Virus record (IMG/VR): IMGVR_UViG_3300034105_001678
Coordinates: 5,543-69,542 of that record
Length of the DNA stretch: 64,000 bases
Reading direction: 5' to 3' (one strand)
From: a virus
Taxonomy: Duplodnaviria; Heunggongvirae; Uroviricota; Caudoviricetes
The notes under the pieces are model-generated. The model saw only the letters and a program-made list of their open reading frames with translations, did no database searches and was not told where the DNA came from. Positions 266-59,542 of this stretch are shown piece after piece. How positions within the stretch are numbered: position 1 is the stretch's first letter; every line of letters begins with the position of its first letter. A program made the position numbers and the translations under genes.

Positions 266-298
266 AGTCCTCTACTGAAAAGTAGGGGATTTTTTTTT
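266..298 (+). terminator. rho-independent terminator (hairpin cctctact-gaaa-agtagggg plus T9)
   Basis: GC stem-loop followed by a T-run immediately after the stop of ORF 35..244. Confidence 0.65.
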
Positions 299-415
299 AC
301 ACACCATATTCCATCCCGAACCAGATCTGGATTATGGATATTGTTTGGCTTTGGTCGGTATTACATTAGAAGCCAAACATTAATGTCCAGTGATCCCTGA
401 ACCAGGATGGAAAAA
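299..415. repeat. Intergenic palindromic repeat element (IRE) copy 1
   Basis: Left end CCAGATCTGG. Core is ATATTGTTTGGC...GCCAAACATTAAT. Right end CCAGGATGGAAAAAATAATTT. Same architecture at about 10 other intergenic sites. Confidence 0.7.
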
Positions 416-430
416 ATAATTTAAATAATA

Positions 431-463
431 TTTGGTGGAATGGAATTAATGTTATATCTTTGT
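431..463 (+). promoter_or_regulatory. Early promoter, Bacteroidetes sigma-A type (TTTG at 431, TATCTTTG at 456-463, 20 nt spacer)
   Basis: Motif AATATTTGGTGGAATG-N-TTATATCTTTGT recurs before 13 plus-strand genes. It matches the Bacteroidetes -33 TTTG / -7 TAnnTTTG consensus. Confidence 0.7.
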
Positions 464-483
464 TGAAACAAATAAACTTAATT

Positions 484-1056
484 ATGGAACACACTAATGA
501 AACAAGAAAAGGTAACTACATTACCAGAACGTATCAAGAGACTGACCCAGAAAGTCCAAGAGGTTGGGATAACCTAACTACAATGTTATGTTTTCATAAC
601 AGATATGATTTAGGTGATAAGACGGAGTACAAGTCCGATATGTTTGAAGGTTGGGAAGATATGAAGACTAAACTTGTTGATACGGAAGACGTACACACGA
701 TTTTACCTTTGTACCTATACGACCATAGTGGAATTACTATTAGTACTAGTCCGTTCGGTTGTAATTGGGATAGTGGACAAGTAGGTTGGATATTCATTAC
801 TAACCAAACCATTAAGGAAGAAGGTATTGATGAAAGTAAAGTTGAGGAGTATCTTAAAAGTGAAGTTGAGACTTACGACCAGTATTTAACGGGTGAAGTT
901 TATGGATACAAGATATTCAAAGTTGAAACTTGTAGTCAAGGTCACGAACACGAAGAAGAATTAGATAGTTGTTACGGGTATTACGGGGAAGACGAGTGTA
1001 TGAAAGAAGGAGTTAGGGTTATGGAATACTATCTAAACGATGAAGTAGTTGTGTAG
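484..1056 (+). CDS. hypothetical early protein (acidic, several Cys/His)
   Basis: ORF 460..1056 in the track starts at TTG. The in-frame ATG at 484 (MEHTNE...) lies about 25 nt after the -7 box. A hairpin terminator follows. Confidence 0.5.
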   Translation: MEHTNETRKGNYITRTYQETDPESPRGWDNLTTMLCFHNRYDLGDKTEYKSDMFEGWEDMKTKLVDTEDVHTILPLYLYDHSGITISTSPFGCNWDSGQVGWIFITNQTIKEEGIDESKVEEYLKSEVETYDQYLTGEVYGYKIFKVETCSQGHEHEEELDSCYGYYGEDECMKEGVRVMEYYLNDEVVV

Positions 1057-1081
1057 TAATACATAGGTTGATAAGGTGAAA

Positions 1082-1112
1082 GGGGGTGAACGAAAGTTCA
1101 TCCCTTTTTTTA
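1082..1112 (+). terminator. rho-independent terminator
   Basis: Hairpin gggtgaac-gaaa-gttcatccc then T7. Confidence 0.6.
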
Positions 1113-1245
1113 TTACCAAGAACCAGATCCACCTATATCCGGATTCGGAATATTGTTTGGCTTTGAGGTATTACATTATAGGGGCCAAAGATTATTTACC
1201 GGAGGACCTGATCTAACCAGGATGGAAAAATAATTTGAAAATAAA
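1113..1245. repeat. IRE copy 2
   Basis: AACCAGATCC...AATATTGTTTGGCTTTG...GGCCAAAGATTATT...CCAGGATGGAAAAAATAATTT. Confidence 0.7.
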
Positions 1246-1313
1246 ATTAAATAATTTTGTTTGGAATTAAAATAGTTGTATATTTGTGTATTCTAAAACT
1301 AAAAAAAAATATT

Positions 1314-1643
1314 ATGATTAACCAACAAGATTACAAAGGTCGTGAAATTGAATTTCAAATGGACGACGTTGATGACAATGTTTACTTCGAGGGTTGTGAT
1401 GACCACACCTTGACGGATGAATTTATGACTAACCTAATGGAAAAGGTTATGAGTTGTAAATGGTTTATTATGGGAAACAAGACCGAAGGTATCATTACCT
1501 TTCAATCCCACAATGAATTTACGATTGACTGGAAATCAATTACAATGGGTGAAGACTGGGACACCGATGAAGAAGATGACCACACACAAGAAGTCCTATT
1601 GAATTATGACTCCGAACAAACCCAAGTAGTTAATTTCAATTAG
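1314..1643 (+). CDS. hypothetical early protein (acidic)
   Basis: ATG at 1314 is in frame with track ORF 1257..1643. Promoter at 1256-1286, terminator at 1663-1690. Confidence 0.5.
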   Translation: MINQQDYKGREIEFQMDDVDDNVYFEGCDDHTLTDEFMTNLMEKVMSCKWFIMGNKTEGIITFQSHNEFTIDWKSITMGEDWDTDEEDDHTQEVLLNYDSEQTQVVNFN

Positions 1644-1690
1644 AAGTTACAAACGGAATTAGACCCCTTACAAAAGTGAGGGGTTTTTTT

Positions 1691-1790
1691 ATGTCCAAGA
1701 AGATCTGGTTCACCTGAGTCTGTGTAATTTTGTTTGGCTAAGCCAATCATTATCCATAGCTCCGGCCCGGAGATCATCGTCCCACAGAAA
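1691..1790. repeat. IRE copy 3
   Basis: TTTTTTTATGTCCAAGAAGATCTGG...TTTTGTTTGGCTAAGCCAATCATTATCC... Confidence 0.65.
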
Positions 1791-1816
1791 TTAATTTAAA
1801 AAAGATTATAAAATGT

Positions 1817-1848
1817 TTTGTTTTATATTAAAAATTGTATTACCTTTG
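1817..1848 (+). promoter_or_regulatory. Early promoter (TTTG 1817, TACCTTTG 1841-1848)
   Basis: 20 nt spacer; fits the consensus. Confidence 0.55.
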
Positions 1849-1871
1849 TGGAACAAATAACAACAAGTACT

Positions 1872-2729
1872 ATGAGTAATCAAGATTCAAGAGTAGTAGA
1901 AATACTCAACAAAGCAAAATTAAACTGGAACGTGAAATCCGAAAGGGTTACCACGGAGTCTGGTATTACATTAGATGGGTATTCAGCCCTGGTTCGTGAA
2001 GACACGAACACTCCACTATCTGTTAGAAGTGAGTCGTATTATCCTTATCAAAACTACGAGTTAGTAGAGTTGTTAGACCGAGTATCGGGATTAACTGGTT
2101 TGTCCATTCACAAAGGAGGTTTCTTTGGTGAGGGCCAAAAAGTATTCATCCAGTTGAAGTCCAACAATTTACGAATTGGTAACGACAGAGTTGAAGGATA
2201 CCTTACGGGAATCAACAGCTTCGATGGTACAACATCTTTGGCCTTTGGTCCAAGTAACATCACCATCAGTTGCCAAAACAAATTCTTTGCAGCCTTTCGT
2301 GAAATGCAATCCAAGGTAAGACATACCAAGAATATGGTAGTAAAGATTGATGAGATCTGTAAAAGACTAGAAGGAGTACTGGACGAGGAGAAGATTGTAT
2401 TCGATAATATCCTTAAGCTGAGTGAAACAAGGTTCGACGATATCATTAAGGATAGAGTTACGCGTGAACTATTCGGCATTAATAAGGATATAGACCTTAA
2501 AGATATGGAGGCAATCAGTGGTGTAACACGCAATAAGCTGAGCCGTTTCTATGTAGATTTAAATGGTGAGTTGCAAGGCAAGGGTGATAACCTATGGGGT
2601 TTATTCTCTGGTATTACAAAGTACACTACTCATAGCCTTACAAAGAATGATAACACTGAAGCCAAAATGTTTGGTGTGTATGGTAAGAGAGAGTTAAGCA
2701 TATTCAACAAGCTGACAGAGCTTGTATAA
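1872..2729 (+). CDS. hypothetical protein (286 aa)
   Basis: In-frame ATG at 1872 (MSNQDSR...). The long ORF has coherent coding potential. Confidence 0.5.
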   Translation: MSNQDSRVVEILNKAKLNWNVKSERVTTESGITLDGYSALVREDTNTPLSVRSESYYPYQNYELVELLDRVSGLTGLSIHKGGFFGEGQKVFIQLKSNNLRIGNDRVEGYLTGINSFDGTTSLAFGPSNITISCQNKFFAAFREMQSKVRHTKNMVVKIDEICKRLEGVLDEEKIVFDNILKLSETRFDDIIKDRVTRELFGINKDIDLKDMEAISGVTRNKLSRFYVDLNGELQGKGDNLWGLFSGITKYTTHSLTKNDNTEAKMFGVYGKRELSIFNKLTELV

Positions 2730-2936
2730 CAATATTCGGTTGGGAGAGGAATATTAAAACACTCTGTGGTCATAGAGTGCGAAGGTTAAGAATAAGTATA
2801 CGAGTGGTATCCCAAGACAACGCCCACGTTGCGTTTCCTATCGTATTACATAGTAGGTGGTTCCTTGAAAAGCATAACGCCTATTCTTATCAAAGACTGA
2901 CATAGTGGAAAGACATTAGGGATTATAAAATAATAA

Positions 2937-2971
2937 AGACCTTTCGGAGTAGTCAACCGAGAGGTTTTTTT
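2937..2971 (+). terminator. rho-independent terminator
   Basis: Hairpin gacctttcgg...ccgagaggt then T7. The small ORF 2846..3079(-) in this region is probably a shadow ORF. Confidence 0.55.
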
Positions 2972-3122
2972 ATGCCCAAGAAATAGCAACTGTGCTGCAC
3001 TGGTGGAATATTGTTTGGCTGAGCCAATCATTATCAAGAGCTGCGCTGTTGCGCTGAGGAGAGCGCTTATACGGGCCAATCAATATTGTCCGGTGCCCAC
3101 TGATCTCCAGGACGTAAAAAAT
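2972..3122. repeat. IRE copy 4
   Basis: TTTTTTTATGCCCAAGAAATAG...AATATTGTTTGGCTGAGCCAATCATTATC...GGGCCAATCAATATTG...CCAGGACGTAAAAAATAATTT. Confidence 0.7.
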
Positions 3123-3146
3123 AATTTAAAAAAAAATAAAATAATA

Positions 3147-3178
3147 TTTGGTGGAATGAAATAGTTGTTATATCTTTG
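3147..3178 (+). promoter_or_regulatory. Early promoter (TTTG 3147-3150, TATCTTTG 3171-3178)
   Basis: Exact 20 nt spacer. Confidence 0.7.
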
Positions 3179-3199
3179 TGGAAACAAAAAAGAAAAATT

Positions 3200-3532
3200 A
3201 TGGACTACAAAATTGTAACATCAAGTAATTCACACACATTAACCGAAAACATAAGGTTATTAATAGGTGAAGGGTGGGAACCAGTTGGTTCACATCAAGT
3301 CGTAACTATACACGACCAAAATAGATATCGTGGTAATCAACATATTGACACCACACACGAAACCGAGTATTCACAAACTATGGTTAGAAAAACCAATACG
3401 AAAGTTATTGAAGTGGATATTATGTTCAACCATCCTGACGATGATGAAACCATTAAGGTTTATGATGAAGAAGGAATGAGAGAAGAATTTGAATATGAAT
3501 TAGATTGTTTAATTAAAAACTCTGGATTATGA
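3200..3532 (+). CDS. hypothetical protein
   Basis: ATG at 3200 (MDYKIV...). The track start 3176 is a TTG. Confidence 0.5.
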   Translation: MDYKIVTSSNSHTLTENIRLLIGEGWEPVGSHQVVTIHDQNRYRGNQHIDTTHETEYSQTMVRKTNTKVIEVDIMFNHPDDDETIKVYDEEGMREEFEYELDCLIKNSGL

Positions 3533-3801
3533 ACAGAATATCAATTTACAAAATAACGGATTTGGATGATGTAGATTCAGATGCGATGTATTATACTCTT
3601 AAAGGTTTAAGAGAACAAGTGTTAAATGAGTGGTATGATGTATGGGGTGAAAGGTGGAATGAAAAATGGGAGGGAGAACAAGACTACACCAAAGAACAAA
3701 TCAAAGAGAGTGATGAAGACCTATTTGGTTATATGGATAGTTGGAATTATAATGTGGAAACAATATTAGAAATCACGGAAGATGACTTCCCTAAATCTTA
3801 A
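3529..3801 (+). CDS. hypothetical protein (acidic, Trp-rich)
   Basis: ATGA overlap with the upstream gene. Confidence 0.45.
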   Translation: MNRISIYKITDLDDVDSDAMYYTLKGLREQVLNEWYDVWGERWNEKWEGEQDYTKEQIKESDEDLFGYMDSWNYNVETILEITEDDFPKS

Positions 3802-3804
3802 ACT

Positions 3805-4026
3805 ATGATAAAGTCAATCGAAGAAAAGAAACACACACCAGTTGAAATAGATTTAACTGGTCCTGATGGAAATGTATTTTACCTTATCGCTCAAGGTGGT
3901 AGGTATTGTAAACAACTGGGTTTAAACTCGGAAGTGTTCACTCGTAGAATGATGAGTGGTGATTACGAAAATGCGGTCAACGTATTTGAAGAATATTTTG
4001 GATCATTTGTAACTTTATTTAGATAA
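3805..4026 (+). CDS. hypothetical protein
   Basis: ORF closely follows the upstream stop. Confidence 0.45.
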   Translation: MIKSIEEKKHTPVEIDLTGPDGNVFYLIAQGGRYCKQLGLNSEVFTRRMMSGDYENAVNVFEEYFGSFVTLFR

Positions 4027-4028
4027 TA

Positions 4029-4060
4029 TTTGGTGGAATGATATATTAGTTATATCTTTG
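4029..4060 (+). promoter_or_regulatory. Early promoter (TTTG 4029, TATCTTTG 4053-4060)
   Basis: 20 nt spacer. Confidence 0.7.
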
Positions 4061-4081
4061 TACCGAACAAAAAAATTAATT

Positions 4082-4279
4082 ATGACAAAGTATCAAGTAT
4101 TAAGTCCAGACGGGTTTACGATTGAGTTCGATAAACCTTATTACACCTCAAAGAAAAAAGCTTTCGAAGCTTTTGACAAGTGGAAAGAAAGGTATAAATT
4201 ACAAGGGTATTATAGTTCCAACAATGGAAGAATACCTTTGGAGGAATTAGAAGATTATATGAGTATTCGTCAAATTTAA
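4082..4279 (+). CDS. hypothetical protein
   Basis: ATG at 4082 (MTKYQV...). Confidence 0.45.
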   Translation: MTKYQVLSPDGFTIEFDKPYYTSKKKAFEAFDKWKERYKLQGYYSSNNGRIPLEELEDYMSIRQI

Positions 4280-4390
4280 AATCAATAACAATGAATATAT
4301 TATATTATATACTTTTAGTATTCGGAGTTGTAGTAGTATTAGCCGCGATGGTTGTAATACTCGTAATCATAATTAAAAAAGCGATAGACA

Positions 4391-4663
4391 ATGGAACAGA
4401 CCCCAACGACATTTAACTTTCATTTAGATACAAAGGTTACAACCTGGTATCGTACAGAATTTGAAATCGAGGCTAACTCATTAGAGGAAGCTCAGAAATT
4501 GGCAATTGCCTTTCGTGAGAGAGGTGATAACACGGAACTGCCGTGGGAACAAATTGACGACACTCTTGAAGGTATGATACCAGATGAAAATGGTGCAGAA
4601 CCTACGGAGGAATTATATGATGAGGATGGTAATATAATTTGGGATAACACTAAATCAATTTAA
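4391..4663 (+). CDS. hypothetical acidic protein
   Basis: ORF. Confidence 0.45.
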   Translation: MEQTPTTFNFHLDTKVTTWYRTEFEIEANSLEEAQKLAIAFRERGDNTELPWEQIDDTLEGMIPDENGAEPTEELYDEDGNIIWDNTKSI

Positions 4664-4664
4664 A

Positions 4665-4982
4665 ATGGATAAGTTAGAATTAATCAAACGTATTACAGAC
4701 ATACTAAAAGTTAATGGATGTTTTAGTATTGGAGAATTGGAGGGAGAAACCACAGGAATTTGTGTGGGTGAATTAGGTAAGTTCGTTGGACTGGTTGAGT
4801 ACTTCACCGAAGATTATTGTGAAGTGAATGTATATGAACCAAGTTCATTTAGTTCAGACCCAATAGACACCTACGAACAAGACTATGGTTTTTTAAGTGA
4901 AGATGTATTAGGTGATATACATTTATTATGTGAACAATGGGAAGCTGAATGTATTAGAACAGAAAAAAGAATTTCAAATTAA
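4665..4982 (+). CDS. hypothetical protein
   Basis: ORF starts 2 nt after the upstream stop. Confidence 0.45.
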   Translation: MDKLELIKRITDILKVNGCFSIGELEGETTGICVGELGKFVGLVEYFTEDYCEVNVYEPSSFSSDPIDTYEQDYGFLSEDVLGDIHLLCEQWEAECIRTEKRISN

Positions 4983-5084
4983 GTTTACATTATAAAAGAC
5001 ATAATGTATATTATATAAAATTGTGTTTATAATTTGTGTTTGAATGTGTAAGAGGGAATGGTAGAAATATCATTTCCTTTTTTT

Positions 5085-5232
5085 ATGCCCAAGAAGATCT
5101 GAGCACAGTGGCACAGGAGAAATAATGTTTGGCTTTCACCTTCCGACGCTGTGGGCCCTGGACTGAATTTGTTTGGCCGAGCCAAACATTATCGGACAGG
5201 TGGATCACCGGCCACCGGTTCTTCCCAGGAAA
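5085..5232. repeat. IRE copy 5
   Basis: TTTTTTTATGCCCAAGAAGATCTGAGCACAG...AATAATGTTTGGCTTTC...TTTGTTTGGCCGAGCCAAACATTATCGG...CCCAGGAAAAAATAATTT. Confidence 0.7.
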
Positions 5233-5259
5233 AAATAATTTAAAAAAAATAAAATAATA

Positions 5260-5291
5260 TTTGTTGGAATAAAATATTTGTTATATCTTTG
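5260..5291 (+). promoter_or_regulatory. Early promoter
   Basis: TTTG 5260-5263, TATCTTTG 5284-5291, 20 nt spacer. Confidence 0.65.
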
Positions 5292-5312
5292 TGTAAACAA
5301 AAAAAGAAAATT

Positions 5313-5561
5313 ATGTCAAATCTAAAAGATCAAGAAGTTAACTCTCATTGGACAAAGGTCGCTAAGAGAGTATTAGAGGGAAAAACTATTGTAGAAGTTC
5401 GTTATCTTAATGATGAGGAAATGGAAATGATGGGTTGGTATAAACGACCTGTATGTTTTGTCCTAAATGATGGTACAAGTTGTATGTTATCCTGTGATGA
5501 TGAGGGTAATGATGGTGGAGTTTTATTCTATGGAACTGATGGTGTTTTACCAGTATTATAA
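5313..5561 (+). CDS. hypothetical protein
   Basis: ATG at 5313 (MSNLKD...). Confidence 0.45.
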   Translation: MSNLKDQEVNSHWTKVAKRVLEGKTIVEVRYLNDEEMEMMGWYKRPVCFVLNDGTSCMLSCDDEGNDGGVLFYGTDGVLPVL

Positions 5562-5597
5562 TAACATATAAAAAAGTTTTAAAAAAATTAAAATAAA

Positions 5598-5629
5598 TTT
5601 GGTGGAATGAAAACTTCTTTATATCTTTG
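5598..5629 (+). promoter_or_regulatory. Early promoter
   Basis: TTTG 5598-5601, TATCTTTG 5622-5629, 20 nt spacer. Confidence 0.65.
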
Positions 5630-5661
5630 TGTAACAATTTAAAATATATAATCCAAAAAAA

Positions 5662-5687
5662 CGGGGACAGGTTTCTGAACAAAAATT
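5662..5687 (+). promoter_or_regulatory. Conserved 5'UTR element CGGGGACAGGTTTCTGAACAAAAATT
   Basis: A near-identical 26-mer also sits at 9461-9486, in the same position between the -7 box and the ATG. Confidence 0.5.
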
Positions 5688-5691
5688 GAGT

Positions 5692-6438
5692 ATGGGAAAC
5701 GTACAATTATTAGGTAAAAAAGTAAACGAGGTTTACTCTACCAAAGATTACAACAAGTTTAAATTTCGTGGGGACAATCGTATTGTCAAAGACTCTCACG
5801 TAAGAGGTCTAATTGAGAATATGAAGTTACGAGGTTGGGAGCCAGGTTCATACGTGGTTATCAACGAGAAAGGTGAAGTCATTGACGGACAACATAGAGT
5901 AAGGGCGGCTATCCAAGTGGGTATTCCAGTTCATTACACTATTGAGAAAAAAGCGGGGTTTGAAACTATCCGTAACCTTAATAGAAACCAAAAGAACTGG
6001 GCGATAACCGACCACATTCACGGATTCGTTGAGGAAAACAATCCACACTACATTAAGTTAAACAACTTCATTAAGGAGTACAAAGAACTTAAAGTTACTG
6101 AATGTATGATGTTATGTAAAAATTCATTCTCATCAGTTCCTCGTAACGAGTTTGAGAGTGGTAACTTTACTACACGTGATATGGGTAAGGCGAGAATGTG
6201 GGGTGATTACATTATGTCACTTAAACCATTCTTTAAAGGTTACAATCGTTCAATCTTTGTAAGAGCGATAGTGAAAGTGTTATCAAAGAAACCAGAATTC
6301 AAGTTTGATAAATTCTTACATAAGGTTCAATTAAGACCAAACTTAATTACTATGTGTGGGACAGTTGAACAATATATATCAATGATTGAGGAGTTGTATA
6401 ACTTCGGTAGTCGTGATAAAATCAATTTAAGATTTTAA
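5692..6438 (+). CDS. ParB-like N-terminal domain protein
   Basis: Segment ...VVINEKGEVIDGQHRVRAAIQVGIPV... resembles the ParB/Srx fold motif (idGhHRl.Aa). ATG at 5692. Confidence 0.45.
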   Translation: MGNVQLLGKKVNEVYSTKDYNKFKFRGDNRIVKDSHVRGLIENMKLRGWEPGSYVVINEKGEVIDGQHRVRAAIQVGIPVHYTIEKKAGFETIRNLNRNQKNWAITDHIHGFVEENNPHYIKLNNFIKEYKELKVTECMMLCKNSFSSVPRNEFESGNFTTRDMGKARMWGDYIMSLKPFFKGYNRSIFVRAIVKVLSKKPEFKFDKFLHKVQLRPNLITMCGTVEQYISMIEELYNFGSRDKINLRF

Positions 6439-6466
6439 GAGTTGGGTTATATAGGTTGGTTAGTAA

Positions 6467-6496
6467 AGTGGGGTGGACTTCGGTTCACCCTTTTTA
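6467..6496 (+). terminator. rho-independent terminator
   Basis: gtggggtggacttcggttcaccc then T5. Confidence 0.55.
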
Positions 6497-6579
6497 TTTG
6501 TATTACCTGGAAGAATGATCTGGGTCGGGGGACCTGTTAGATAGTGTTTGGCCCTGAATGTGAATAAGTTAAAAAAAGT

Positions 6580-6610
6580 TTTGCAGTTATTAACATTTTG
6601 TGTATATTTG
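6580..6610 (+). promoter_or_regulatory. Promoter (TTTG 6580, TATATTTG 6603-6610, 19 nt spacer)
   Basis: Fits the Bacteroidetes consensus. Confidence 0.5.
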
Positions 6611-6635
6611 CAGAACGAAAACAAACAAATGTATT

Positions 6636-6878
6636 ATGATTAAAAAATTGTCGAAAGATCAGACATTAAGAATGTTTGACCATTCCACGAAATTGTATTG
6701 TAAAATACAATTGAGTGAAAACAAGAAGTATTACGAGAAGTACGTTTCCAGGGATAAAAAGAACTGGGAATTAATTAGTAAGTTAAAATCGTTTGATGAG
6801 GTATTAACAACTCAGCAAGAATTGATAGATAACAACTATATGAACTTGTTTAGAAAGATTAGCACGGGTAAAGTTTAA
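6636..6878 (+). CDS. hypothetical protein
   Basis: ATG at 6636 (MIKKLSKD...). Confidence 0.4.
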   Translation: MIKKLSKDQTLRMFDHSTKLYCKIQLSENKKYYEKYVSRDKKNWELISKLKSFDEVLTTQQELIDNNYMNLFRKISTGKV

Positions 6879-6908
6879 TAGATTTTGGATTAGTAAGTTT
6901 TATTGTTC

Positions 6909-6940
6909 AGGAGACCTCACCAGAAATGGTGGGGTTTTTC
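6909..6940 (+). terminator. rho-independent terminator
   Basis: cctcacca-gaaa-tggtgggg then T5. Confidence 0.6.
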
Positions 6941-6942
6941 TT

Positions 6943-7150
6943 TGCAACTAATTTGCGCAGATCTGGCAGCAGAGGTGGATAATGTTTGGCCATCGTAACT
7001 ACTTGATTATCAATGATAGTCCTGGGCCAATCATTATCGGTGCTGTTGCGCGCAGCAGGTGTTCCCATTTATGCGCAGCAATTTGGCTGAATTATGCGCA
7101 ACTGGTGGCCAATCATTATTAGGGATGATCTCACCAGCATCCAGGGCACA
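6943..7150. repeat. IRE copy 7 (the longest, composite)
   Basis: Contains GCGCAGATCTGGCAG, GATAATGTTTGGCCATCG, GGGCCAATCATTATCGG, TGGCCAATCATTATTAGGGATGATCT and CCAGGGCACAAAAAAAAC. TGCGCAG-type sub-repeats occur several times. Confidence 0.65.
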
Positions 7151-7179
7151 AAAAAAACTTCATTTATTTTTAAATTAAA

Positions 7180-7211
7180 TTTGGTGGAATGAAAATAGTT
7201 TTATATCTTTG
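7180..7211 (+). promoter_or_regulatory. Early promoter
   Basis: TTTG 7180-7183, TATCTTTG 7204-7211. Confidence 0.65.
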
Positions 7212-7233
7212 TACAGAACAAAAAAAACAAATT

Positions 7234-7992
7234 ATGATTTACAAAAACATCTCACAATCTAAGAAGTCTACTGGACTATCTTATTTAGGTATGGTTAACA
7301 ACTCTACCAAACACGAAAAAGCGTACAAGTTCGATGAACTGGTATACACTTTATATTTGGCACCTGCCAAAATGAGTGGGTACGAAGTTTGCCCGATGAG
7401 AACAAAAGAATGTACATTGTTATGTCTGAATGAATCAGGTCGTAATAAAATGGACACTCACAAAAACACGATTAACAATTCACGAATCAAAAAAACTAAA
7501 TTGTTTTTTGAGGAGAGAGAATTCTTTATGAAGTGGTTAATCGATGATATCACAATAGCCAAAAAGAAGGCTAAAGATCTGGGATATCATTTTAGTGTTC
7601 GTCTGAATAATACTTCGGATATCTCCCCCGAATCTTTTTACTTGTCAATTGATGGAGTCAATAAAAACATACTGGAAATATTTCCCGATGTTCAATTCTA
7701 TGATTATACAAAAGTACCTAATCGGATGAGGTTGAAAATGAAATACCCTAATTACGATTTAACCTTTTCATTTAGTGGTAACAATATGGATGAGTGTTTT
7801 AAAATGTTACAAAATAACATTAGGGTGGCGATGGTGTTCGACAAAGTTCCCACGTCATACAAAGGTTATAACGTTATCGATGGTGATCAGTACGATATGA
7901 GATATCGGGATGATGATAATGTTATTGTTGGTTTGAAGTTTAAACGAGTACGAACTAAACTAGATAAAAAATATAAGTTCGTAATACAATAG
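7234..7992 (+). CDS. hypothetical protein (252 aa)
   Basis: ATG at 7234. Terminator at 7999-8020. Confidence 0.5.
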   Translation: MIYKNISQSKKSTGLSYLGMVNNSTKHEKAYKFDELVYTLYLAPAKMSGYEVCPMRTKECTLLCLNESGRNKMDTHKNTINNSRIKKTKLFFEEREFFMKWLIDDITIAKKKAKDLGYHFSVRLNNTSDISPESFYLSIDGVNKNILEIFPDVQFYDYTKVPNRMRLKMKYPNYDLTFSFSGNNMDECFKMLQNNIRVAMVFDKVPTSYKGYNVIDGDQYDMRYRDDDNVIVGLKFKRVRTKLDKKYKFVIQ

Positions 7993-7998
7993 AATAAG

Positions 7999-8020
7999 AA
8001 ACCCCGAAAGGGGTTTTTTT
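7999..8020 (+). terminator. rho-independent terminator
   Basis: aaccccgaaaggggtt then T7. Confidence 0.7.
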
Positions 8021-8165
8021 ATGCCCAAGAATCTCCGGCCACTGTGCACAGATGAAATTTGTTTGGCCGAGCCAATCATTATTAGAAGACGCCGTCGCCG
8101 GTCTTCTGTGAAGGTAAGAGCCAATCATTATTAGGGATGATCTGCACCGGTGGCCGGAAATAAAA
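8021..8165. repeat. IRE copy 8
   Basis: TTTTTTTATGCCCAAGAATCTCCGG...AAATTTGTTTGGCCGAGCCAATCATTATTAG...GAGCCAATCATTATTAGGGATGATCT... Confidence 0.7.
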
Positions 8166-8190
8166 TAATTTTAAAATAAATAAAATATTA

Positions 8191-8222
8191 TTTGGTGGAT
8201 TGAAATAAAGGTTATATCTTTG
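8191..8222 (+). promoter_or_regulatory. Early promoter
   Basis: TTTG 8191-8194, TATCTTTG 8215-8222. Confidence 0.65.
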
Positions 8223-8245
8223 TACCGAACAAAAAAACATATACA

Positions 8246-8533
8246 ATGATTAAAGAAAAAAGAAAACCAATTTCAGTAAGTGACCACAAGAGATTCGCTT
8301 GCTTTGAGTATGAAAATGAAACTTCACCAGGCTATCAACTGGGCGATATTCTTTACAAGGAATATGGTGAAGAACAGGAACCAGAAGTCGGAGTAGTCAT
8401 CCAAACTTTCGAGGATGGTGATGTTAGAACCGATATGTGGGGTATGAGTTGTGATGACGAAGTATCTCAAGCAACTTTGGAACAGATCAAAAAGTATCGA
8501 CCAAGTTTAATGGAATTTCTTTTAATAAAATAA
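8246..8533 (+). CDS. hypothetical protein
   Basis: ATG start as in the track. Confidence 0.45.
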   Translation: MIKEKRKPISVSDHKRFACFEYENETSPGYQLGDILYKEYGEEQEPEVGVVIQTFEDGDVRTDMWGMSCDDEVSQATLEQIKKYRPSLMEFLLIK

Positions 8534-8534
8534 A

Positions 8535-8566
8535 TTTGGTGGAACAGAATAAAAGTTATATCTTTG
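8535..8566 (+). promoter_or_regulatory. Early promoter
   Basis: TTTG 8535-8538, TATCTTTG 8559-8566. Confidence 0.65.
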
Positions 8567-8604
8567 TAAAATAAATCATTTACTAATTAATAAATTTAAA
8601 CAAA

Positions 8605-9045
8605 ATGGGAACACGTTCAACCTACCGAGTTATCGAACAATGGACTGATGACAAAACCGGTAAAATCAAAAATGAGAATTTAGTTTTAGTGTATCTGCAA
8701 TATGACGGATACCCAACAGGTCATCCTATTGATACCGCTGAATGGTTATCAACTGGCAAAGTCGTAAATGGTTACAGCCTAAACGAAGAATTACAATTCA
8801 ACGGAGCTGGCTGTTTAGCTGCCCAACTCGTAGACAAAATGAAAACTGGAACTGGTGGATGTTATATACATTCATTGAGTAGTCGTGGTAAATCGTGGGA
8901 AGATTATCTCTATGATATTATTGTCAAAGAAGATAAATCCATTGAGTACGTTTGTTATGAGAATGGAAGTAAGAAGAAAGAACTATTTCGTGGTTCACCT
9001 GCGGACTTTGTAATCAAATATCATAAAGAAGATGTCGAAGCTTAA
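8605..9045 (+). CDS. hypothetical protein
   Basis: ORF. Confidence 0.45.
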   Translation: MGTRSTYRVIEQWTDDKTGKIKNENLVLVYLQYDGYPTGHPIDTAEWLSTGKVVNGYSLNEELQFNGAGCLAAQLVDKMKTGTGGCYIHSLSSRGKSWEDYLYDIIVKEDKSIEYVCYENGSKKKELFRGSPADFVIKYHKEDVEA

Positions 9046-9406
9046 TAAAGTTAGATTTAACCTTTCACGTGGTGAAAACTATATGAAGTGGAAAGTAATG
9101 TATGACGACGGCAGGGTGGATTATCACCATCCTGCTGAAGTTCAGATCAATATGTTTGGCTGTACCCTATCTAATAATAGAAGAGCGGCCGACAAGATCT
9201 TTAATGGTGAAACTACCAAAGTGGTGTGTGCTTATATTAAGTGTAAGGATGTCCAGGTTATAACCAGTGACTTCAATACTGAAAGTAATACACAGATCAA
9301 GTACAACCCAAGAGAGATGCCATTCTGGAATGTGGATGGTGTTAATCACGACGGAAATTATTATGAAGAACTTTTTACAATAGATTATAAAGTTTTTGTA
9401 AAATAA
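9032..9406 (+). CDS. hypothetical protein
   Basis: Overlaps the upstream gene by 14 nt. Confidence 0.45.
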   Translation: MSKLNKVRFNLSRGENYMKWKVMYDDGRVDYHHPAEVQINMFGCTLSNNRRAADKIFNGETTKVVCAYIKCKDVQVITSDFNTESNTQIKYNPREMPFWNVDGVNHDGNYYEELFTIDYKVFVK

Positions 9407-9438
9407 TTTGGTGGATTAAAATAATTGTTATACATTTG
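9407..9438 (+). promoter_or_regulatory. Early promoter (TTTG 9407, TACATTTG 9431-9438)
   Basis: 20 nt spacer. Confidence 0.6.
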
Positions 9439-9489
9439 TAAAAGAAATCAATTTAAAACACGGGGACAGGTTACTGAACACAAATTATT

Positions 9490-10035
9490 ATGGGACTAGA
9501 TATGTATTTGTCGAAAAAAACTTATGTTAAACAATGGTCACACATTGAACCAGAGAAACAATTTGAAGTAGAAGTTAAACGTGGTGGTGAACCTTACACC
9601 GACATCAAATCCGAACGAGTGTCATACGTGACCGAAGGTGTTGGGTATTGGAGAAAGTTCAACGCTTTACACAACTGGTTTGTGGAGAATTGTCAGGATG
9701 GTTTGGATGAGTGTCAAGAAAGTTATGTAGACCGAACCAAGTTAGAGGAGTTAGTTGTAACACTTCACGAGGTCAAGAACATTTTAGAGAACTCACCAAA
9801 GAAAAAGGTACAGGTTAAAAATGGTTGGTCAAATGGTGAGGACACCTTTGTTGAAATCGAAGTATCGGAAGATAGTGAGAAGTTAGATGAGTTGTTTCCA
9901 ACATCATCAGGGTTTTTCTTCGGGGGAACTGAATATGATGAGTATTACAAAGAACAAGTTGATGAAACAATCGAATTGATTACTGACTTGTTGAAAGATG
10001 AAACGGGTGAATACTACTACCAAGCTTCTTGGTAA
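9490..10035 (+). CDS. hypothetical protein
   Basis: Preceded by the CGGGGACAGGTTACTGAACA UTR element. Confidence 0.45.
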   Translation: MGLDMYLSKKTYVKQWSHIEPEKQFEVEVKRGGEPYTDIKSERVSYVTEGVGYWRKFNALHNWFVENCQDGLDECQESYVDRTKLEELVVTLHEVKNILENSPKKKVQVKNGWSNGEDTFVEIEVSEDSEKLDELFPTSSGFFFGGTEYDEYYKEQVDETIELITDLLKDETGEYYYQASW

Positions 10036-10055
10036 ATAATATAACGGGAATATCA

Positions 10056-10087
10056 TTTGGAAAAATGGTATTCCTTTTATATCTTTG
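10056..10087 (+). promoter_or_regulatory. Early promoter
   Basis: TTTG 10056-10059, TATCTTTG 10080-10087. Confidence 0.6.
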
Positions 10088-10108
10088 TAAAACTTAAACT
10101 AAACGATT

Positions 10109-10753
10109 ATGCCAAACTGGTGTTCAAATTCTATTGTCATTACTGGTGACAAAGAAAAAATAAAAAAGATTAAAAGGGTGTTACAATCAATGGACACCAA
10201 ACAAGATAACATTGGTATATTTCAAACTCTTGTTGGTAAGGACGATAATATAAGTGAGTCCCAGTACAATGAGGGAGGAGCTTGGTATCAACATAACCTT
10301 GATAGGTATGGATGTAAATGGGATATCAACTGGGATGACTCCAACATTGATATTGAGGGTGATGAATGTATTACTATGTCACCACAAACGGCTTGGTCGC
10401 CGCCGGAGGGATTCTGTAGATTACTATCCGAACAATATGGTGTAGATGTTCTACTGGAATACTCGGAGCCTGGATGTGACTTCGCCGGTAAACTTCTCAC
10501 ATATGGTGATGGTAGAGAGGAGGAGGGAGAAACATATCAATACCTCGAAGGATTATACTTCATTGATGAGGATTACTTTTGGATGGAGGTTAGAAACAAT
10601 CTCGAGTATGAGTTTGAAGATGGAGAACCGAGAGAAGTAAAGGAATGGATGGAAGACTTCCAGTATGTAGATGAGAAACATCATAGTGACCTTATTGAGT
10701 TATATGATGATATCAAAGAGGAGTACGAAGAACAACAACAAGAATCAAAATAA
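10109..10753 (+). CDS. hypothetical acidic protein
   Basis: Long ORF. Internal ORFs 10254.., 10288..(-) and 10446.. are shadows. Confidence 0.5.
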   Translation: MPNWCSNSIVITGDKEKIKKIKRVLQSMDTKQDNIGIFQTLVGKDDNISESQYNEGGAWYQHNLDRYGCKWDINWDDSNIDIEGDECITMSPQTAWSPPEGFCRLLSEQYGVDVLLEYSEPGCDFAGKLLTYGDGREEEGETYQYLEGLYFIDEDYFWMEVRNNLEYEFEDGEPREVKEWMEDFQYVDEKHHSDLIELYDDIKEEYEEQQQESK

Positions 10754-10822
10754 TTTCACGGGAGCTGAGATGGTAAATAATCTTTGGCTCCCATTTATAC
10801 ACACTAAATAAAAAAACAAGCA

Positions 10823-11314
10823 ATGGGAAGATTTAATCAATCAATCGACGGAGTATTCACTGATCTAGTAGAAGTGGGACAAATTCCAAGTTATGACAAG
10901 TTCGTAAACTATGGTAATGAAATTAAACCAAGTAAAGACCTGAAGAAATTCACCGTCGAGTACAAGAACCTAGTAAAGGTGTTTGGCCCTACAGTGGAGA
11001 AGTTGGCAACACTTGAGGAAATCATTATGCAAATGAGAGCAAAAGAATCAGTGGATGATATTAAGTTGTCCTTAGTAAGAGATTACTTATATGCTCGTTG
11101 TTCATTCTTCCGTCGTGGCAAGTTGTCTAAGGACATTCGTGTTATCGTGGACAAGGCTGAATTCTGGGAAGTACCTAATGTGGATGATCTTTTAACCAAT
11201 AAGGACTTTATGGACAAAGCCGTTAGCAAACTTACAAGAGCAATGGACACTGAGATTAAGAACAATGTCTATGAGTATGGTAAAACTCAAGAGTTAGAAA
11301 ATACTAAAAAATAA
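10823..11314 (+). CDS. hypothetical protein
   Basis: ORF. Confidence 0.45.
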   Translation: MGRFNQSIDGVFTDLVEVGQIPSYDKFVNYGNEIKPSKDLKKFTVEYKNLVKVFGPTVEKLATLEEIIMQMRAKESVDDIKLSLVRDYLYARCSFFRRGKLSKDIRVIVDKAEFWEVPNVDDLLTNKDFMDKAVSKLTRAMDTEIKNNVYEYGKTQELENTKK

Positions 11315-11369
11315 TTAGTATATTCCAAATTAGTTTGTATCTTTACATCGAACAATAAAATAAACTGAT

Positions 11370-11939
11370 ATGAGTAAAATTAAATTAGGTAAGGAGGTTA
11401 TGATATCCGACCCTTGTTATGTGGAACCTACTTGGTGTCAACATAAGCTTAAGAATGTATTACCTGGAGAGTACTCCGTGTATAACAAGTACTTCAACGC
11501 TGGTGATTGGGGCATAAGGAATTCTATGTTGATTGCGGTCCATCAGGATTACGAGATGGATGACAATCTAAGATGGAAAGAATGTGCTGGAGCTGTAGTG
11601 GGTGTTGACTCGGGACAGGCTGGAATATTTGACCACGCGTATTACAGGAAGGACAGTGTCTTCGAGAATCAGGAATCCAAATTCCTTAAGGAGTATGTGG
11701 TCCACAACAATGAGGGAGGAGAGATATGGTATGCACATATGTGTGACCGTACCTTAGGTGAAGAAGGATGGGGACACTTCGAACACGGAGTGGTATCTAG
11801 ATCTGGATTCGGGGATGGTTCATATACTCTGTATGTTGCAAGAGTTAACCGCAAGGTGGTTGGTATCTGTATCGACTTCGAAGTTGAACCTGATGGTTCC
11901 ACAATTGAATTTGATTTCTATAAGAACCAGGCTGTTTAG
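11370..11939 (+). CDS. hypothetical protein (in the GC-richer region)
   Basis: ORF with a noticeably higher GC codon preference than its neighbours. Confidence 0.45.
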   Translation: MSKIKLGKEVMISDPCYVEPTWCQHKLKNVLPGEYSVYNKYFNAGDWGIRNSMLIAVHQDYEMDDNLRWKECAGAVVGVDSGQAGIFDHAYYRKDSVFENQESKFLKEYVVHNNEGGEIWYAHMCDRTLGEEGWGHFEHGVVSRSGFGDGSYTLYVARVNRKVVGICIDFEVEPDGSTIEFDFYKNQAV

Positions 11940-12140
11940 TCCTGGTTCTTCTTACTAACATCTAATCCAAAACAAATGAAAAAGTTCTTATTTAACTTGC
12001 ACTGGCTGTTTGACTTCTATGTCATTTACTTCACCTATAATACTAGTAAGATTAAAAGGTACCACGAGTATATGTCCAAGAAGTATGGAAACAAATACAC
12101 AGATTTATTCACGGGACCTGAGGAGGATTCCAAATAATGT

Positions 12141-12569
12141 TTGGCTATGAATGAACCAGAAATAACTTTAAAACCTTCACAGTGGCTGAATGCCGGTTGG
12201 ATATTGTTTGGCCTTGCGGGCATAATGTTTGTCATCCCTCCACTTATAGCAATATGGAAGATAATAGAACTATATTGCCACAAGTATGATTTCTATGAGG
12301 ATCACATTCTAGAGTCGAAGGGTGTCTTCACCGTCACCAGGAATGAGATTCATTATTTCAGAATCAAGTCCATCCAAATCGACGAACCATTCCTCTACAG
12401 GTTGGTGGACCTGTCTAGTTTGCACATTAAGACATCTGACCAGTATACGATGGAGTTCACCTTGAAGGCTATACCAGTAGGTAAAACTCTGGTGAACGAT
12501 TTAAGGACTGTGGTTAAGGCAGAAAGAAAGGCACATAATGTGAGGGAGTTTGATATGTACGACCTATAA
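12141..12569 (+). CDS. membrane protein with a bacterial PH (bPH_2/YdbT-like) domain
   Basis: N-terminal TM hairpin followed by a region resembling the membrane-flanked bPH_2 domain. The start may instead be ATG at 12147. Confidence 0.4.
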   Translation: MAMNEPEITLKPSQWLNAGWILFGLAGIMFVIPPLIAIWKIIELYCHKYDFYEDHILESKGVFTVTRNEIHYFRIKSIQIDEPFLYRLVDLSSLHIKTSDQYTMEFTLKAIPVGKTLVNDLRTVVKAERKAHNVREFDMYDL

Positions 12570-12638
12570 AATATATTTTAATGGAATTTGGAATTACAGA
12601 TAATTTTGTTTATAATTTATATATAAACAAATCAGATT

Positions 12639-12821
12639 ATGAAAAAAACAAACACTGGTCGTGCAACACAGGTAACTACCTACGTGCCGATCTCAGACAA
12701 CATTTACCACGATGGGTATTCTTACCGTGTACGAGTAAGAGTTCAGGGCGAGACTGTAAGCAGAAACTTCTCAAGCAAGAGAAAGGCTGTAGCTTTCCGC
12801 AACGAATTGCTAAGAGGGTAA
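12639..12821 (+). CDS. small basic putative DNA-binding protein (AP2/integrase Arm-like)
   Basis: YRVRVRVQGETVSRNFSSKRKAVAFRNEL resembles the AP2 / Arm DNA-binding fold. A terminator follows at 12846-12888. Preferred over the overlapping ORF 12581..12898. Confidence 0.3.
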   Translation: MKKTNTGRATQVTTYVPISDNIYHDGYSYRVRVRVQGETVSRNFSSKRKAVAFRNELLRG

Positions 12822-12845
12822 TTAAAGACTTCCTTAAAAGAGGGC

Positions 12846-12888
12846 AAGGCCTGGGTGTGAAAGCGCTTGGGCCTTTTTTTTATGTCCC
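12846..12888 (+). terminator. rho-independent terminator
   Basis: GC-rich stem then T8. Followed by the TATGTCCC...CCCAGGATGGAAAATAATGTTTGGC module (IRE-like, 12889-12935). Confidence 0.55.
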
Positions 12889-12958
12889 GTCAGTGTAAGA
12901 CGACCCAGGATGGAAAATAATGTTTGGCTTTAAAATATTCTAAATATTTATAGGATAT

Positions 12959-13669
12959 ATGGAGAAACTAATATACCTTGTCGAGGAAAACGTTTTATTA
13001 ATGAAGAGACTCGAGAACCTAACCGTGTATGACGGGAACAGGTTCCACCTAACCATCACCTGGGAACAGGATGGTCCTAATATGCACGGTGTAATACTCG
13101 GGACCATAAAGGTGGACTCACCTCAGATATCAGTGGATCTAATCGACGGTCTGATGAAGACAGCAGCCCAGTACTTGTATGACAACAATATTGACCCGAC
13201 CGATAACATTACCTTCAGTGTCTCCAGGATATATATAATGTTTGGCCATAACAAGATTGATCTATTCGACTACATCCCACACAACCTGAAGAGGGACCTC
13301 ATCGGTGACACCCCAACTATAAAAGAAGTAGTAGATGGACACTATGGTAATATCAACCCAGATCAACTACCAGACTTCAACAGTGAATATGACAAACACG
13401 TAGCTGTTAAAATAAAAAGATTACAAGCCGTCTTTAAAGTATTACAAAGGGGTACCTTTGAAGGTGAACCCTATAGACTTAAAAGTCACCCTGAGATAGT
13501 TGTTAACTCGGACGACAAGAACTTCACCGTAGGTGGTAGGGTTGTTAGTCCAGACTTTAAACTATCCATTACAGGTGAAATTGAATCTGGACCACAGACT
13601 GTGGAGTTCAGAAACTTCCTTAGAGAGAAATTCAAAAACCTTGGTATAACCGATTCTAACTTTATTTAG
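12959..13669 (+). CDS. hypothetical protein
   Basis: ORF. Contains an internal ATAATGTTTGGCC motif at 13245. Confidence 0.45.
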   Translation: MEKLIYLVEENVLLMKRLENLTVYDGNRFHLTITWEQDGPNMHGVILGTIKVDSPQISVDLIDGLMKTAAQYLYDNNIDPTDNITFSVSRIYIMFGHNKIDLFDYIPHNLKRDLIGDTPTIKEVVDGHYGNINPDQLPDFNSEYDKHVAVKIKRLQAVFKVLQRGTFEGEPYRLKSHPEIVVNSDDKNFTVGGRVVSPDFKLSITGEIESGPQTVEFRNFLREKFKNLGITDSNFI

Positions 13670-13679
13670 TTGGGTTAGG

Positions 13680-13760
13680 GTTTGGGGCCAAACATTATTC
13701 GTATTACAATGGTTGTTTAGACACCTATCATTTTAGTCAATAATGTTTGGCCCTTATCTA
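13680..13760. repeat. Perfect palindrome GGGCCAAACATTATT...AATAATGTTTGGCCC flanking about 45 nt
   Basis: Arms at 13686-13700 and 13738-13752. Confidence 0.7.
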
Positions 13761-14030
13761 TTGCGGTCCTCCCTCCGGTCGGACCTTCATCCCGTATTCT
13801 TGCCAAACAAGTTCACCCTGTATGACATCCCGTAAGTTGTTTGGCAAAAGTGATGTATGACTTGGCGGGGGATCTGTCGATCCCCCTTCAGGTAGATACT
13901 AGAACCTGGTCTATAGGGATATAATTATAAACCCATTATACTGGTGTATGACAAGGGGGATGTATGACATCGGGATGAAGGGAGGGAGACGAGAGTCTCC
14001 CGACCGTATAACCATTATACTATTATATGA
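13760..14030. other. Candidate replication origin / strand-switch control region
   Basis: Four TGTATGAC(A/T) iterons at 13819, 13854, 13945 and 13961. IR TTGCCAAACAA / TTGTTTGGCAA at 13796-13848. Hairpin GGGGGATCTGTCGATCCCCC at 13869-13888. Long-range IR at 13771-13794 versus 13971-14006. Non-coding over about 650 bp, between the plus and minus gene blocks. Confidence 0.45.
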
Positions 14031-52514: not shown

Positions 52515-52518
52515 ATTA

Positions 52519-55584: not shown

Positions 55585-55585
55585 T

Positions 55586-59538: not shown

Positions 59539-59542
59539 GATT

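Follow-up and report, generated by a model that had tools for sequence, protein, structure and literature searches.

The early genes of an uncultured Flavobacterium-type phage are separated by a real, fast-rearranging family of mirror-symmetric DNA elements. The window analysed here is a 64-kb stretch (64,000 nt) of IMG/VR record IMGVR_UViG_3300034105_001678 and covers part of the genome only. It is phage-like and AT-rich (GC about 33%), and its early block (1-13.7 kb, + strand) holds about 26 small genes, beyond which lie a divergent switch region of 0.6 kb and a tightly packed block of - strand genes. The elements are non-coding imperfect palindromes of 70-210 bp. We tentatively read them, at slightly short of even confidence, as operator-like arrays of protein recognition sites upstream of early promoters, and also as recombination junctions. 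The binding-site reading fits best because the short words of the elements are conserved and occur also singly and within open reading frames (ORFs), because relatives keep the architecture with words of their own, and because DNA-binding proteins are encoded in the same block.

An earlier note on this DNA had described the family as a MITE-like or REP-like mobile or regulatory repeat, or as an array of sites for a dimeric phage regulator. The family is borne out, with its details overstated; the site array is the best of these interpretations, whereas the readings as a miniature inverted-repeat transposable element (MITE) or a repetitive extragenic palindrome (REP) fail their defining tests. 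The note had not recognised a described element, and no prior description was found in Rfam (no match at gathering thresholds over the 64 kb, and none at E <= 1 over 1-14.5 kb), in INPHARED (by megablast and tblastn no relative of the early region, and no cultured phage matching the DNA) or in a literature search with the motif string, which returned unrelated primer-type matches only.

Element anatomy and recognition words

Many early genes have their own Bacteroidota-type promoter (TTTG ... TAnnTTTG). The early promoter repeat, ATTTGGTGGAATGAAA..TATATCTTTG or ATTTGGTGGAATGAAA..GTTATATCTTTG, spans 60-86 nt and is present in at least 11 copies, which start near 422, 1248, 3138, 4020, 5251, 5589, 7171, 8182, 8526, 9398 and 10047; A-rich tracts of the type AAAAATAATTT stand 5' of it. 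Strong intrinsic terminators end nine early genes, and every strong terminator of the block has an element after it. Among the 17 gaps of at least 50 nt, eight contain a full element, two a half and one a motif within a hairpin (10760-10794), and six have a promoter only. Elements therefore occupy 8-11 of the 17 gaps and not almost every gap, as had been claimed, but the rule that an element follows a terminator stands.

Within 298-13,850 the family comprises eight composite elements (E1-E8, E6 among them a half) and a second half, E10. Beyond the composites there are a reversed pair (E11), a variant pair at 13.80-13.85 kb and several solo sites, including three within ORFs. The members are listed below with an example of the early promoter; entries without a strand are unstranded.

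298-411: E1; GATC (324), ATATTGTTTGGC (338-349), 22-nt spacer with GTATTAC (358), GCCAAACATTAA (372-383), GATC (392), CCAGGATGG
425-470, + strand: example of the early promoter repeat, ATAATATTTGGTGGAATGG..GTTATATCTTTG
1111-1224: E2; GATC (1126), ATATTGTTTGGC (1150), 22-nt spacer with GTATTAC (1168), GCCAAAGATTAT (1184), GATC (1210), CCAGGATGG
1691-1786: E3; GATC (1702), TTCACCTGAG arm, ATTTTGTTTGGC-TAA-GCCAATCATTAT (19-bp palindrome type), GATC (1772)
2970-3116: E4; ATATTGTTTGGC-TGA-GCCAATCATTAT (3008-3034), GC-rich spacer, GCCAATCAATAT (3075), GATC (3102)
5085-5229: E5; GATC (5096), GCACAGTGGC module, ATAATGTTTGGC (5122), spacer, AATTTGTTTGGC-CGA-GCCAAACATTAT (5166-5192), GATC (5203), CCAGGA
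6496-6562: half element E6; GTATTAC (6500), GATC (6517), single ATAGTGTTTGGC (6541); directly 3' of the ParB-like gene
6941-7147: E7; GATC (6960), ATAATGTTTGGC (6979), 33/35-nt loop (6991-7023), GCCAATCATTAT (7026), spacer, GCCAATCATTAT (7108), GATC (7127)
8020-8158: E8; GCCACTGTGC module, AATTTGTTTGGC-CGA-GCCAATCATTAT (8056-8082), internal hairpin, GCCAATCATTAT (8120), GATC (8139)
9149-9160, + strand: in-ORF sense-strand site AATATGTTTGGC; similar in-ORF sites at 12201-12212 and 13235-13246
10760-10794, + strand: hairpin GGGAGC..ATAATCTTTGGCTCCC with one 12-mer (10777-10788)
12134-12145, + strand: solo 12-mer ATAATGTTTGGC; overlaps a stop codon, 1 nt 5' of the next start codon
12881-12935, + strand: half element E10; CGTCAGTGTAAGACGACCCAGGATGG-AAAATAATGTTTGGC, after the terminator at 12846-12875
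13687-13751: E11; GCCAAACATTAT (13687), 41-nt spacer with GTATTAC (13701), ATAATGTTTGGC (13740); reversed order, folds strongly
13800-13848: inverted pair TTGCCAAACAA / TTGTTTGGCAA in the divergent switch region; core variant of L442-L445 and L450-L452

The shared parts are a GATC near both ends, CCATCCTGG / CCAGGATGG or CCTGA arms (CCTGG/CCAGG), a GCACAGTGGC module in either orientation, and the loop word GTATTAC in the longer spacers. Terminal inverted repeats, which had been ascribed to the family, are present in a subset of copies only (13-15 bp, CCATCCTGGTTCA...TGAACCAGGATGG), and the ends are better described as GATC...GATC plus CCATCCTGG...CCAGGATGG. The order of terminator, element, A-rich tract and promoter holds, but the parts once called fixed are less constant. 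The linker is exact at two sites (1684 and 5078) and partial at three more, and its pattern, TTTTTATGYCCAAGAA, is too loose for searching and drew unrelated contigs; the right end is mostly the A-rich region 5' of the promoter. The GC content of the cores is 41-53% instead of 55-60%, against about 33% for the genome. The eleven copies listed earlier include the composites and halves, but the copy at 12100-12140 is a solo 12-mer over a stop codon and that at 13680-13760 a tail-to-tail pair. Elements hold 13 of the 88 GATC, 15 of the 34 GGCC, 11 of the 29 CCGG and 8 of the 13 GCGC sites, 4-mers that the genome avoids.

The refined core word is a 12-mer, ATAAT-S-W-TTGGC, and the enrichment of the core motif over shuffled expectation is confirmed. 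TKTTTGGC has 25 copies against 3.4 expected (none of 100 shuffles reaches 25), and the 12-mer at up to two mismatches has 41 against 9.3; nearly all copies are confined to 1-13.9 kb. No words are more specific to the early block than TGTTTGGC and GTATTAC. In an unbiased scan of 7-mers and 8-mers for this block, GTATTAC and (T)GTTTGGC ranked at the top, with 17+5 and 16+4 copies in 13.8 kb, compared with 0 and 2 in the other 47 kb. The window's 22 copies of GTATTAC are all confined to the first 13.7 kb; 17 are sense-strand copies and 13 are within ORFs. The remaining 50 kb contain none, where about 9 would be expected.

Recognition sites are concentrated in non-coding DNA, which makes up 25% of the early block and holds 23 of the 31 sites. 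Pairs are nearly always head-to-head (8 cases, versus 2 in other order), and the spacing of paired 12-mers is usually 3, about 22 or 35 nt. The 19-bp palindrome TGTTTGGC-N3-GCCAAWCA is present in E3, E4, E5 and E8; in the others the half-sites are split by 20-24 or 35 nt or stand alone. With such variable spacing, asymmetric half-sites and many solo sites, a strictly dimeric regulator is not required. The site nearest the promoter is 59-81 bp upstream of its -33 box, with clusters at about 60, 70 and 80 bp, a 10-bp phasing that is only suggestive since the orthologues are not independent.

Two other explanations of the 12-mer were rejected. The window 12-mer resembles the promoter -33 sequence ATAATATTTGGT, but relatives keep the -33 ATTTGGT as the core word changes, so that it is not a -33 box decoy. 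DnaA boxes are not enriched (27 versus 28.7 expected). A 126-aa protein encoded at 27689-28069 (- strand) consists of DnaA domain IV only, with an intact RDHTTVLH signature (PDB 1j1v, E = 1.6e-12), and may interfere with host DnaA boxes.

Folding separates the copies into two groups. E1, E8 and E11 fold far better than shuffled sequence (z-scores of -4.9, -3.8 and -6.0) and form one long hairpin; the rest do not (-0.1 to -1.7). Together with the sense-strand bias of both words, these three copies could point to structured RNAs made from the spacers, such as small RNAs, processing sites or decoys. This is extremely unlikely. The elements lie 3' of strong intrinsic terminators and 5' of the next promoter, and Rfam gave no match. 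Five of the eight composite elements fold like shuffled sequence, and arms within an element are no more complementary than arms across elements (12.7 versus 12.7, p = 0.46). The RNAalifold consensus of the E8 orthologues is weak (covariation term -0.99). The conserved feature is sequence, not pairing, and since arm complementarity is not copy-specific, the palindromic look is due to shared words in mirror order and not to co-evolving stems. On these grounds the reading as one long hairpin or RNA was rejected.

A hairpin or cruciform that presents GTATTAC in its loop as a nick or priming site, as in HUH Rep origins of the NAGTATTAC type or in single-strand initiation sites, is very unlikely as well. 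GTATTAC or GTAATAC does lie within most 20-24-nt spacers between inverted arms, loops flip orientation, and the distant relative L126 has perfect 16-17-bp stems around GTATTAC, with the loop word kept while stems differ by lineage. One copy reads TAGTATTAC (251), which we take to recall a Rep nick site, a lead only. However, unlike in Rep origins, GTATTAC is in the loop in part of the copies only; most copies are outside hairpins, 13 being in ORFs, and the spacer is only 3 nt in four of the eight elements. Arm complementarity, as given above, is again not copy-specific. A search of 100 ORFs gave no HUH motif, and the ORFs scanned gave no Rep family match; a rolling-circle nick site was rejected.

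Conservation and rearrangement in relatives

Seven related metagenomic or viral contigs were found by pattern and protein scans (L121, L120=L418, L424, L334/L340, L412, L389 and L357). Their identity to the window is 82-94%. Their elements occupy the same gaps, and additional ones lie upstream of the window start. In orthologous elements of four related genomes the 12-mers are 84-99% identical, compared with 66-90% for the rest of the core and 74-96% for the terminator and promoter flanks. The solo 12-mer at 12134 is invariant in four genomes despite divergence of the upstream coding sequence.

Rearrangements within the elements are seen directly. L334r and L412 have the 33-nt loop of E7 in the opposite orientation (91% identical when reverse-complemented, 48% when compared directly). 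The left arm of E5 is replaced or inverted in L120 and L424, and a 14-bp segment of it is inverted between L120 and L334r. Whole arms are swapped between genomes otherwise 94% identical. In E1, E3, E4 and the half element G12570, modules of 51-77 nt come and go precisely at ..TTTGGC, and the inserts each end in the same word; E3 of the relatives has an extra module of about 65 nt between its half-sites, and E4 of L334r and L121 has 60-77 nt inserted directly after ..TTGTTTGGC. Gene content changes at the same places. In L121, L334r and L389 a different gene stands between E2 and E3, the breakpoints being at the GATC/CCTGG of these two elements; a gene-cassette swap has its breakpoint at the right GATC of E2. 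After E5, L334 (reverse strand) has one more small gene, with a promoter of its own and a copy of the early promoter on either side; this is a PeSL-like insertion without a core element (PeSL, promoter early stem-loop).

PeSLs are repeats of T4-type phages; where closely related genomes differ by an inserted, deleted or replaced gene, the breakpoints lie in them (PMC2839356, PMC4122927). The elements here resemble them in two ways: small accessory early genes are separated by a recurring unit of stem-loop terminator, AT-rich tract and consensus early promoter, and the repeats mark where ORFs have been replaced or inserted between close relatives. PeSLs have no extra core, whereas here the terminator and the A-rich tract are separated by a mirror-symmetric, GC-richer block (45-210 bp) with conserved words of its own; the phage group is also a different one, with Bacteroidota-type promoters. 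The cores could in principle be function-less scars of such recombination between repeated terminator/promoter cassettes. The matching architecture, the E2-E3 replacement with breakpoints inside elements, the extra gene of L334r between duplicated promoters, the arm replacements and the 33-nt and 14-bp inversions would all be expected of scars. Scars would not, however, hold the 12-mer at 84-99% while neighbouring sequence decays, and they leave unexpected the fixed head-to-head polarity, the words inside ORFs and, in the wider clade described next, the lineage-specific words in the same architecture and a seven-unit tandem array. We regard this explanation as quite unlikely.

Multi-promoter early regions of the same kind are found at loci whose GP88 and other shared early genes are 60-73% identical. 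These more distant relatives carry abundant core words of their own in the terminator-promoter spacers, in the same gaps:

L442-L445 and L450-L452: TTGTTTGGCA
L446 and L448: TAGTTTGGCAA
L447: TTGTTTCGCA
L123: TGCCAAAGAATAT; single, in threes between the ParB-like and GP88 genes, and in a tandem array
L124: TTAGTGGGGCAA (TAGTGGGGCAA)
L125: AGTTTACCGGGAT (TTTACCGGGAT)
L126: AGTTAATTGGCAAT (TTAATTGGCAA)

As in the window, the clade core words are concentrated in non-coding DNA, and their pairs are almost always head-to-head with discrete spacer classes. GTAT(T/G)AC is present in all relatives examined, often in or near the spacers, and L124, L125 and L126 have GTATTAC in many of them. The L123 tandem array (12164-12445, in the region 12140-12470) has seven repeats of 46-48 bp, each with CTGCCAAAGAATATTCAGA. 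It sits between a terminator and the gene for an AP2-fold protein and resembles a centromere or iteron array. The architecture is therefore an old one that has been retained, with a core word particular to each lineage, the pattern that would be expected of sites co-evolving with a phage-encoded binding protein.

This pattern also bears on whether the elements are selfish, non-autonomous mobile palindromes, similar to MITEs, REPs and bacterial interspersed mosaic elements (BIMEs), or palindrome-associated transposable elements (PATEs), that accumulate in the terminator-promoter spacer as the only safe harbour of a compact genome. Their size and imperfect symmetry would suit such elements, as would the terminal inverted repeats of some copies and the modules nested right after ..TTTGGC and ending in the same word. 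The + and - arm variants fit copying from a master element, and the 4-bp palindromes, avoided elsewhere in the genome but rich in the elements, could mean foreign origin. The half element G12570 is polymorphic, being absent from the window and present in three relatives. It is the only one that varies in presence: full elements are in the same gaps in all relatives, so the presence/absence comparison proposed earlier yields almost no new-site insertion polymorphism. Positions are stable across 6-17% divergence and in distant relatives with a changed core word, which points to co-evolving sites and not to repeated invasions.

Other traits of mobile palindromes are also missing. Target-site duplications flank none of the copies, and about 90 ORFs compared with Pfam or PHROGs gave no match to a transposase, integrase, RAYT or recombinase family; the negative HUH result applies here too. 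Species genomes of bacteria and archaea (185,579) were scanned as well, and none of the matches listed was a locus with more than two sites. The words are in addition found singly, in tandem arrays and inside ORFs. REP/BIME and MITE families are likewise multi-copy, short, extragenic, mosaic or nested imperfect palindromes, some with terminal inverted repeats, but the elements here have no GTAG tetranucleotide head, and they lie outside transcripts, at stable orthologous positions. A mobile origin is thus unlikely.

Integron attC sites (e.g. the Vibrio VCR) were also compared. They too are lineage-specific, variable-length imperfect palindromes after each gene of a small accessory array, and GTTTGGC is one base from the GTTRRRY core. 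In attC, however, RYYYAAC...GTTRRRY stands at the outer ends, whereas here the order is GTTTGGC ... GCCAAAC with GGC towards the centre, and every cassette has its own promoter and terminator. No integron integrase or tyrosine recombinase was found among the ORFs scanned, and with the polarity wrong the attC reading was rejected.

Candidate binding proteins and a proposed early control

Profile scans of the early block identify DUF932, GP88, Api92-like, DUF4241 and ParB-like proteins. Two early proteins are candidates for binding the words:

5692-6438, + strand: ParB/KorB-fold early protein of 248 aa with a DGQHRVRAA box; candidate binder of the TTTGGC-type word
12639-12821, + strand: AP2/integrase-arm-fold DNA-binding protein of 60 aa; candidate binder of GTATKAC

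The ParB-like protein matches phrog_12305, and PF02195 is found on one homologue. Its AlphaFold2 model has a pLDDT (predicted local distance difference test) of 87, and the top Foldseek matches in the PDB are ParB CTPase clamps, KorB, pNOB8 ParB and Spo0J (7bnr, 6sdk, 7bm8, 8qa9 and 1vz0, probability 1.0 over 190-240 columns). The predicted structure has a ParB N-terminal (CTPase) fold and a helical DNA-binding domain. Box II reads DGQHRVRAA where GERRxRAA is usual.

ParB-like protein and word co-occur in the clade. Wherever a homologue of at least 36% identity is encoded (13 loci), the top 9-mer is of the TTTGGC/TTTCGC type. Such a core word was found in none of the six loci of the same clade whose sequence was examined and that have no detectable homologue (L122, L124-L127 and L155). 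These use other core words or none of this type, and L122, being without upstream flank, says little on co-occurrence. Homologues of 35% identity or less, including those of the cultured Flavobacterium phages lillamy9 and morran9, are without such a word. Strict co-variation of ParB-like divergence with the core word was rejected, L450 (36% identity) sharing the word of L442 (60%). The half-site TGTTTGGC presumably recalls a parS half-site, TGTTTCAC, and the L125 word presumably a Noc site; we take both as leads only.

The 60-aa AP2-fold protein is found in most clade loci examined. The longest ORF at its position, 12581-12898 (105 aa), overlaps it and runs through a terminator. This longer ORF is probably spurious and the 60-aa ORF in the other frame the real gene, because homology supports the latter.

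The operator-like arrays would work as follows. They occupy the untranscribed spacer between the terminator of one early gene and the promoter of the next, and present two words, the lineage-specific 12-mer (here ATAAT-S-W-TTGGC), paired head-to-head or single, and GTAT(T/G)AC. We infer which protein binds which word and what follows from it: the ParB/KorB-fold protein would recognise the TTTGGC-type word and the AP2-fold protein GTATKAC. From sites 59-81 bp upstream of each -33 box, the bound proteins would silence or insulate the early promoters as early proteins accumulate, in a network likened to the KorB/KorA operators of plasmid RK2. The spacers would also be recombination hot spots because the same short words recur there in mirror order, allowing inversion, gain or loss of modules, and exchange of promoter-gene-terminator cassettes in the manner of PeSLs.

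Together with KorA, KorB acts on promoters from operators that stand between 4 bp and more than 1 kb upstream of them (PMC11790492), and other regulators with a ParB-CTPase fold are VirB and BisD (PMC10770331, PMC12409273). Here too, many presumed sites lie next to a ParB-fold gene, upstream of promoters by anything from a few bp to hundreds, and a second small DNA-binding protein would have its own short operator in a proposed global silencing of a gene set. The KorB operator (OB) is a contiguous 16-bp site, whereas the half-sites here are asymmetric, often solo or split, and part of larger, plastic elements. The protein also differs, with DGQHR in place of GERR, a phage early-region context, and CTP binding, sliding and DNA binding that are all putative.

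Temperate phages have dispersed repressor sites, namely the L5 stoperators, the P1 C1 operators and the phiC31 conserved inverted repeats. These resemble the words here in having many copies of 12-17 bp, often asymmetric and orientation-biased, in early intergenic spaces. They are single short sites, however, whereas the elements here are composite palindromes of 70-210 bp. Lysogeny is not evident, no integrase or repressor having been found in the window.

Several observations weigh against the operator-like reading. ParB and KorB usually bind contiguous palindromes, while many sites here are solo or variably split, and most sites of L442, L443 and L446 stand alone in + orientation. There is a systematic difference between + and - half-sites at positions 6-7 (GT versus GA or CT). 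The model leaves unexplained the sense-strand bias of both words, their copies inside ORFs, and the GATC retained at element ends. Six early promoters have no upstream element, so the elements are not needed for promoter activity. The link between protein and word comes from co-occurrence in one clade, where shared ancestry is a possible confounder, and the lillamy9-1 homologue is 33.5% identical in a phage with no dense repeat word.

A wider claim, that this uncultured Bacteroidota phage clade, some genomes of which are above 200 kb, runs a two-factor, KorB/KorA-like early silencing with ParB-CTPase-fold and AP2-fold proteins that would time the shut-off, and with anti-defence cassettes exchanged at the junctions, is doubtful. 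In this scheme the ParB-type protein would be loaded at parS-like words particular to each lineage and the AP2-fold protein would bind GTATKAC, every terminator-promoter spacer holding both. If the operator-like reading is right, a lytic-type phage controls its early genes by a ParB-fold regulator and a stand-alone AP2-fold protein at more than 20 dispersed sites, and gene regulation and modular gene exchange are tied to the same DNA elements. The recently recognised non-segregation roles of the ParB-CTPase fold, as in KorB, VirB and BisD, would then extend to phage early regions, and the core word with GTATKAC would be a signature of early, probably anti-defence, gene blocks across a large set of uncultured Flavobacteriia-type phages. 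Should the binding model fail, the elements remain a clear case of hyper-plastic cassette junctions outside the T4 group.

Other features of the window

The switch region (13760-14340), a possible origin or master control region, contains long inverted repeats, TCCTCCCTCCGGTCGGAC / GGGAGGGAGACGAGAGTCTCCCGACCG, as well as four GTATGAC repeats and the inverted pair TTGCCAAACAA/TTGTTTGGCAA. A 5' leader motif, ACGGGGACAGGTTWCTGAACA, is common to 5661-5681, 9460-9480 and L121 at about 236. In the window it closely precedes the ParB-like gene and the gene at 9490, and may be a translational or transcriptional operator.

Between the stop codon of the DUF932 gene and its terminator there are about 235 nt of non-coding DNA (2730-2965), about 90% identical in five genomes. 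This stretch is better conserved than the neighbouring element, has no Rfam match, and may be a 3' untranslated region (UTR) RNA.

CATG has no copy in the window (1-64000), compared with about 200 expected from composition, and GCGC, GGCC, CCGG and GATC are strongly under-represented outside the elements. This depletion suggests heavy avoidance of restriction sites.

No tRNA was found in the window. The protein encoded at 46771-48642 has a PcfJ-like domain. The thymidylate synthase encoded at 49738-50886 (- strand) has 382 aa against a profile of 266 positions, which implies an insertion of about 100 aa. The region 52500-61750 (+ strand) contains a block of glycosyltransferase genes along with UDP-galactopyranose mutase, an unusual cargo for a phage.

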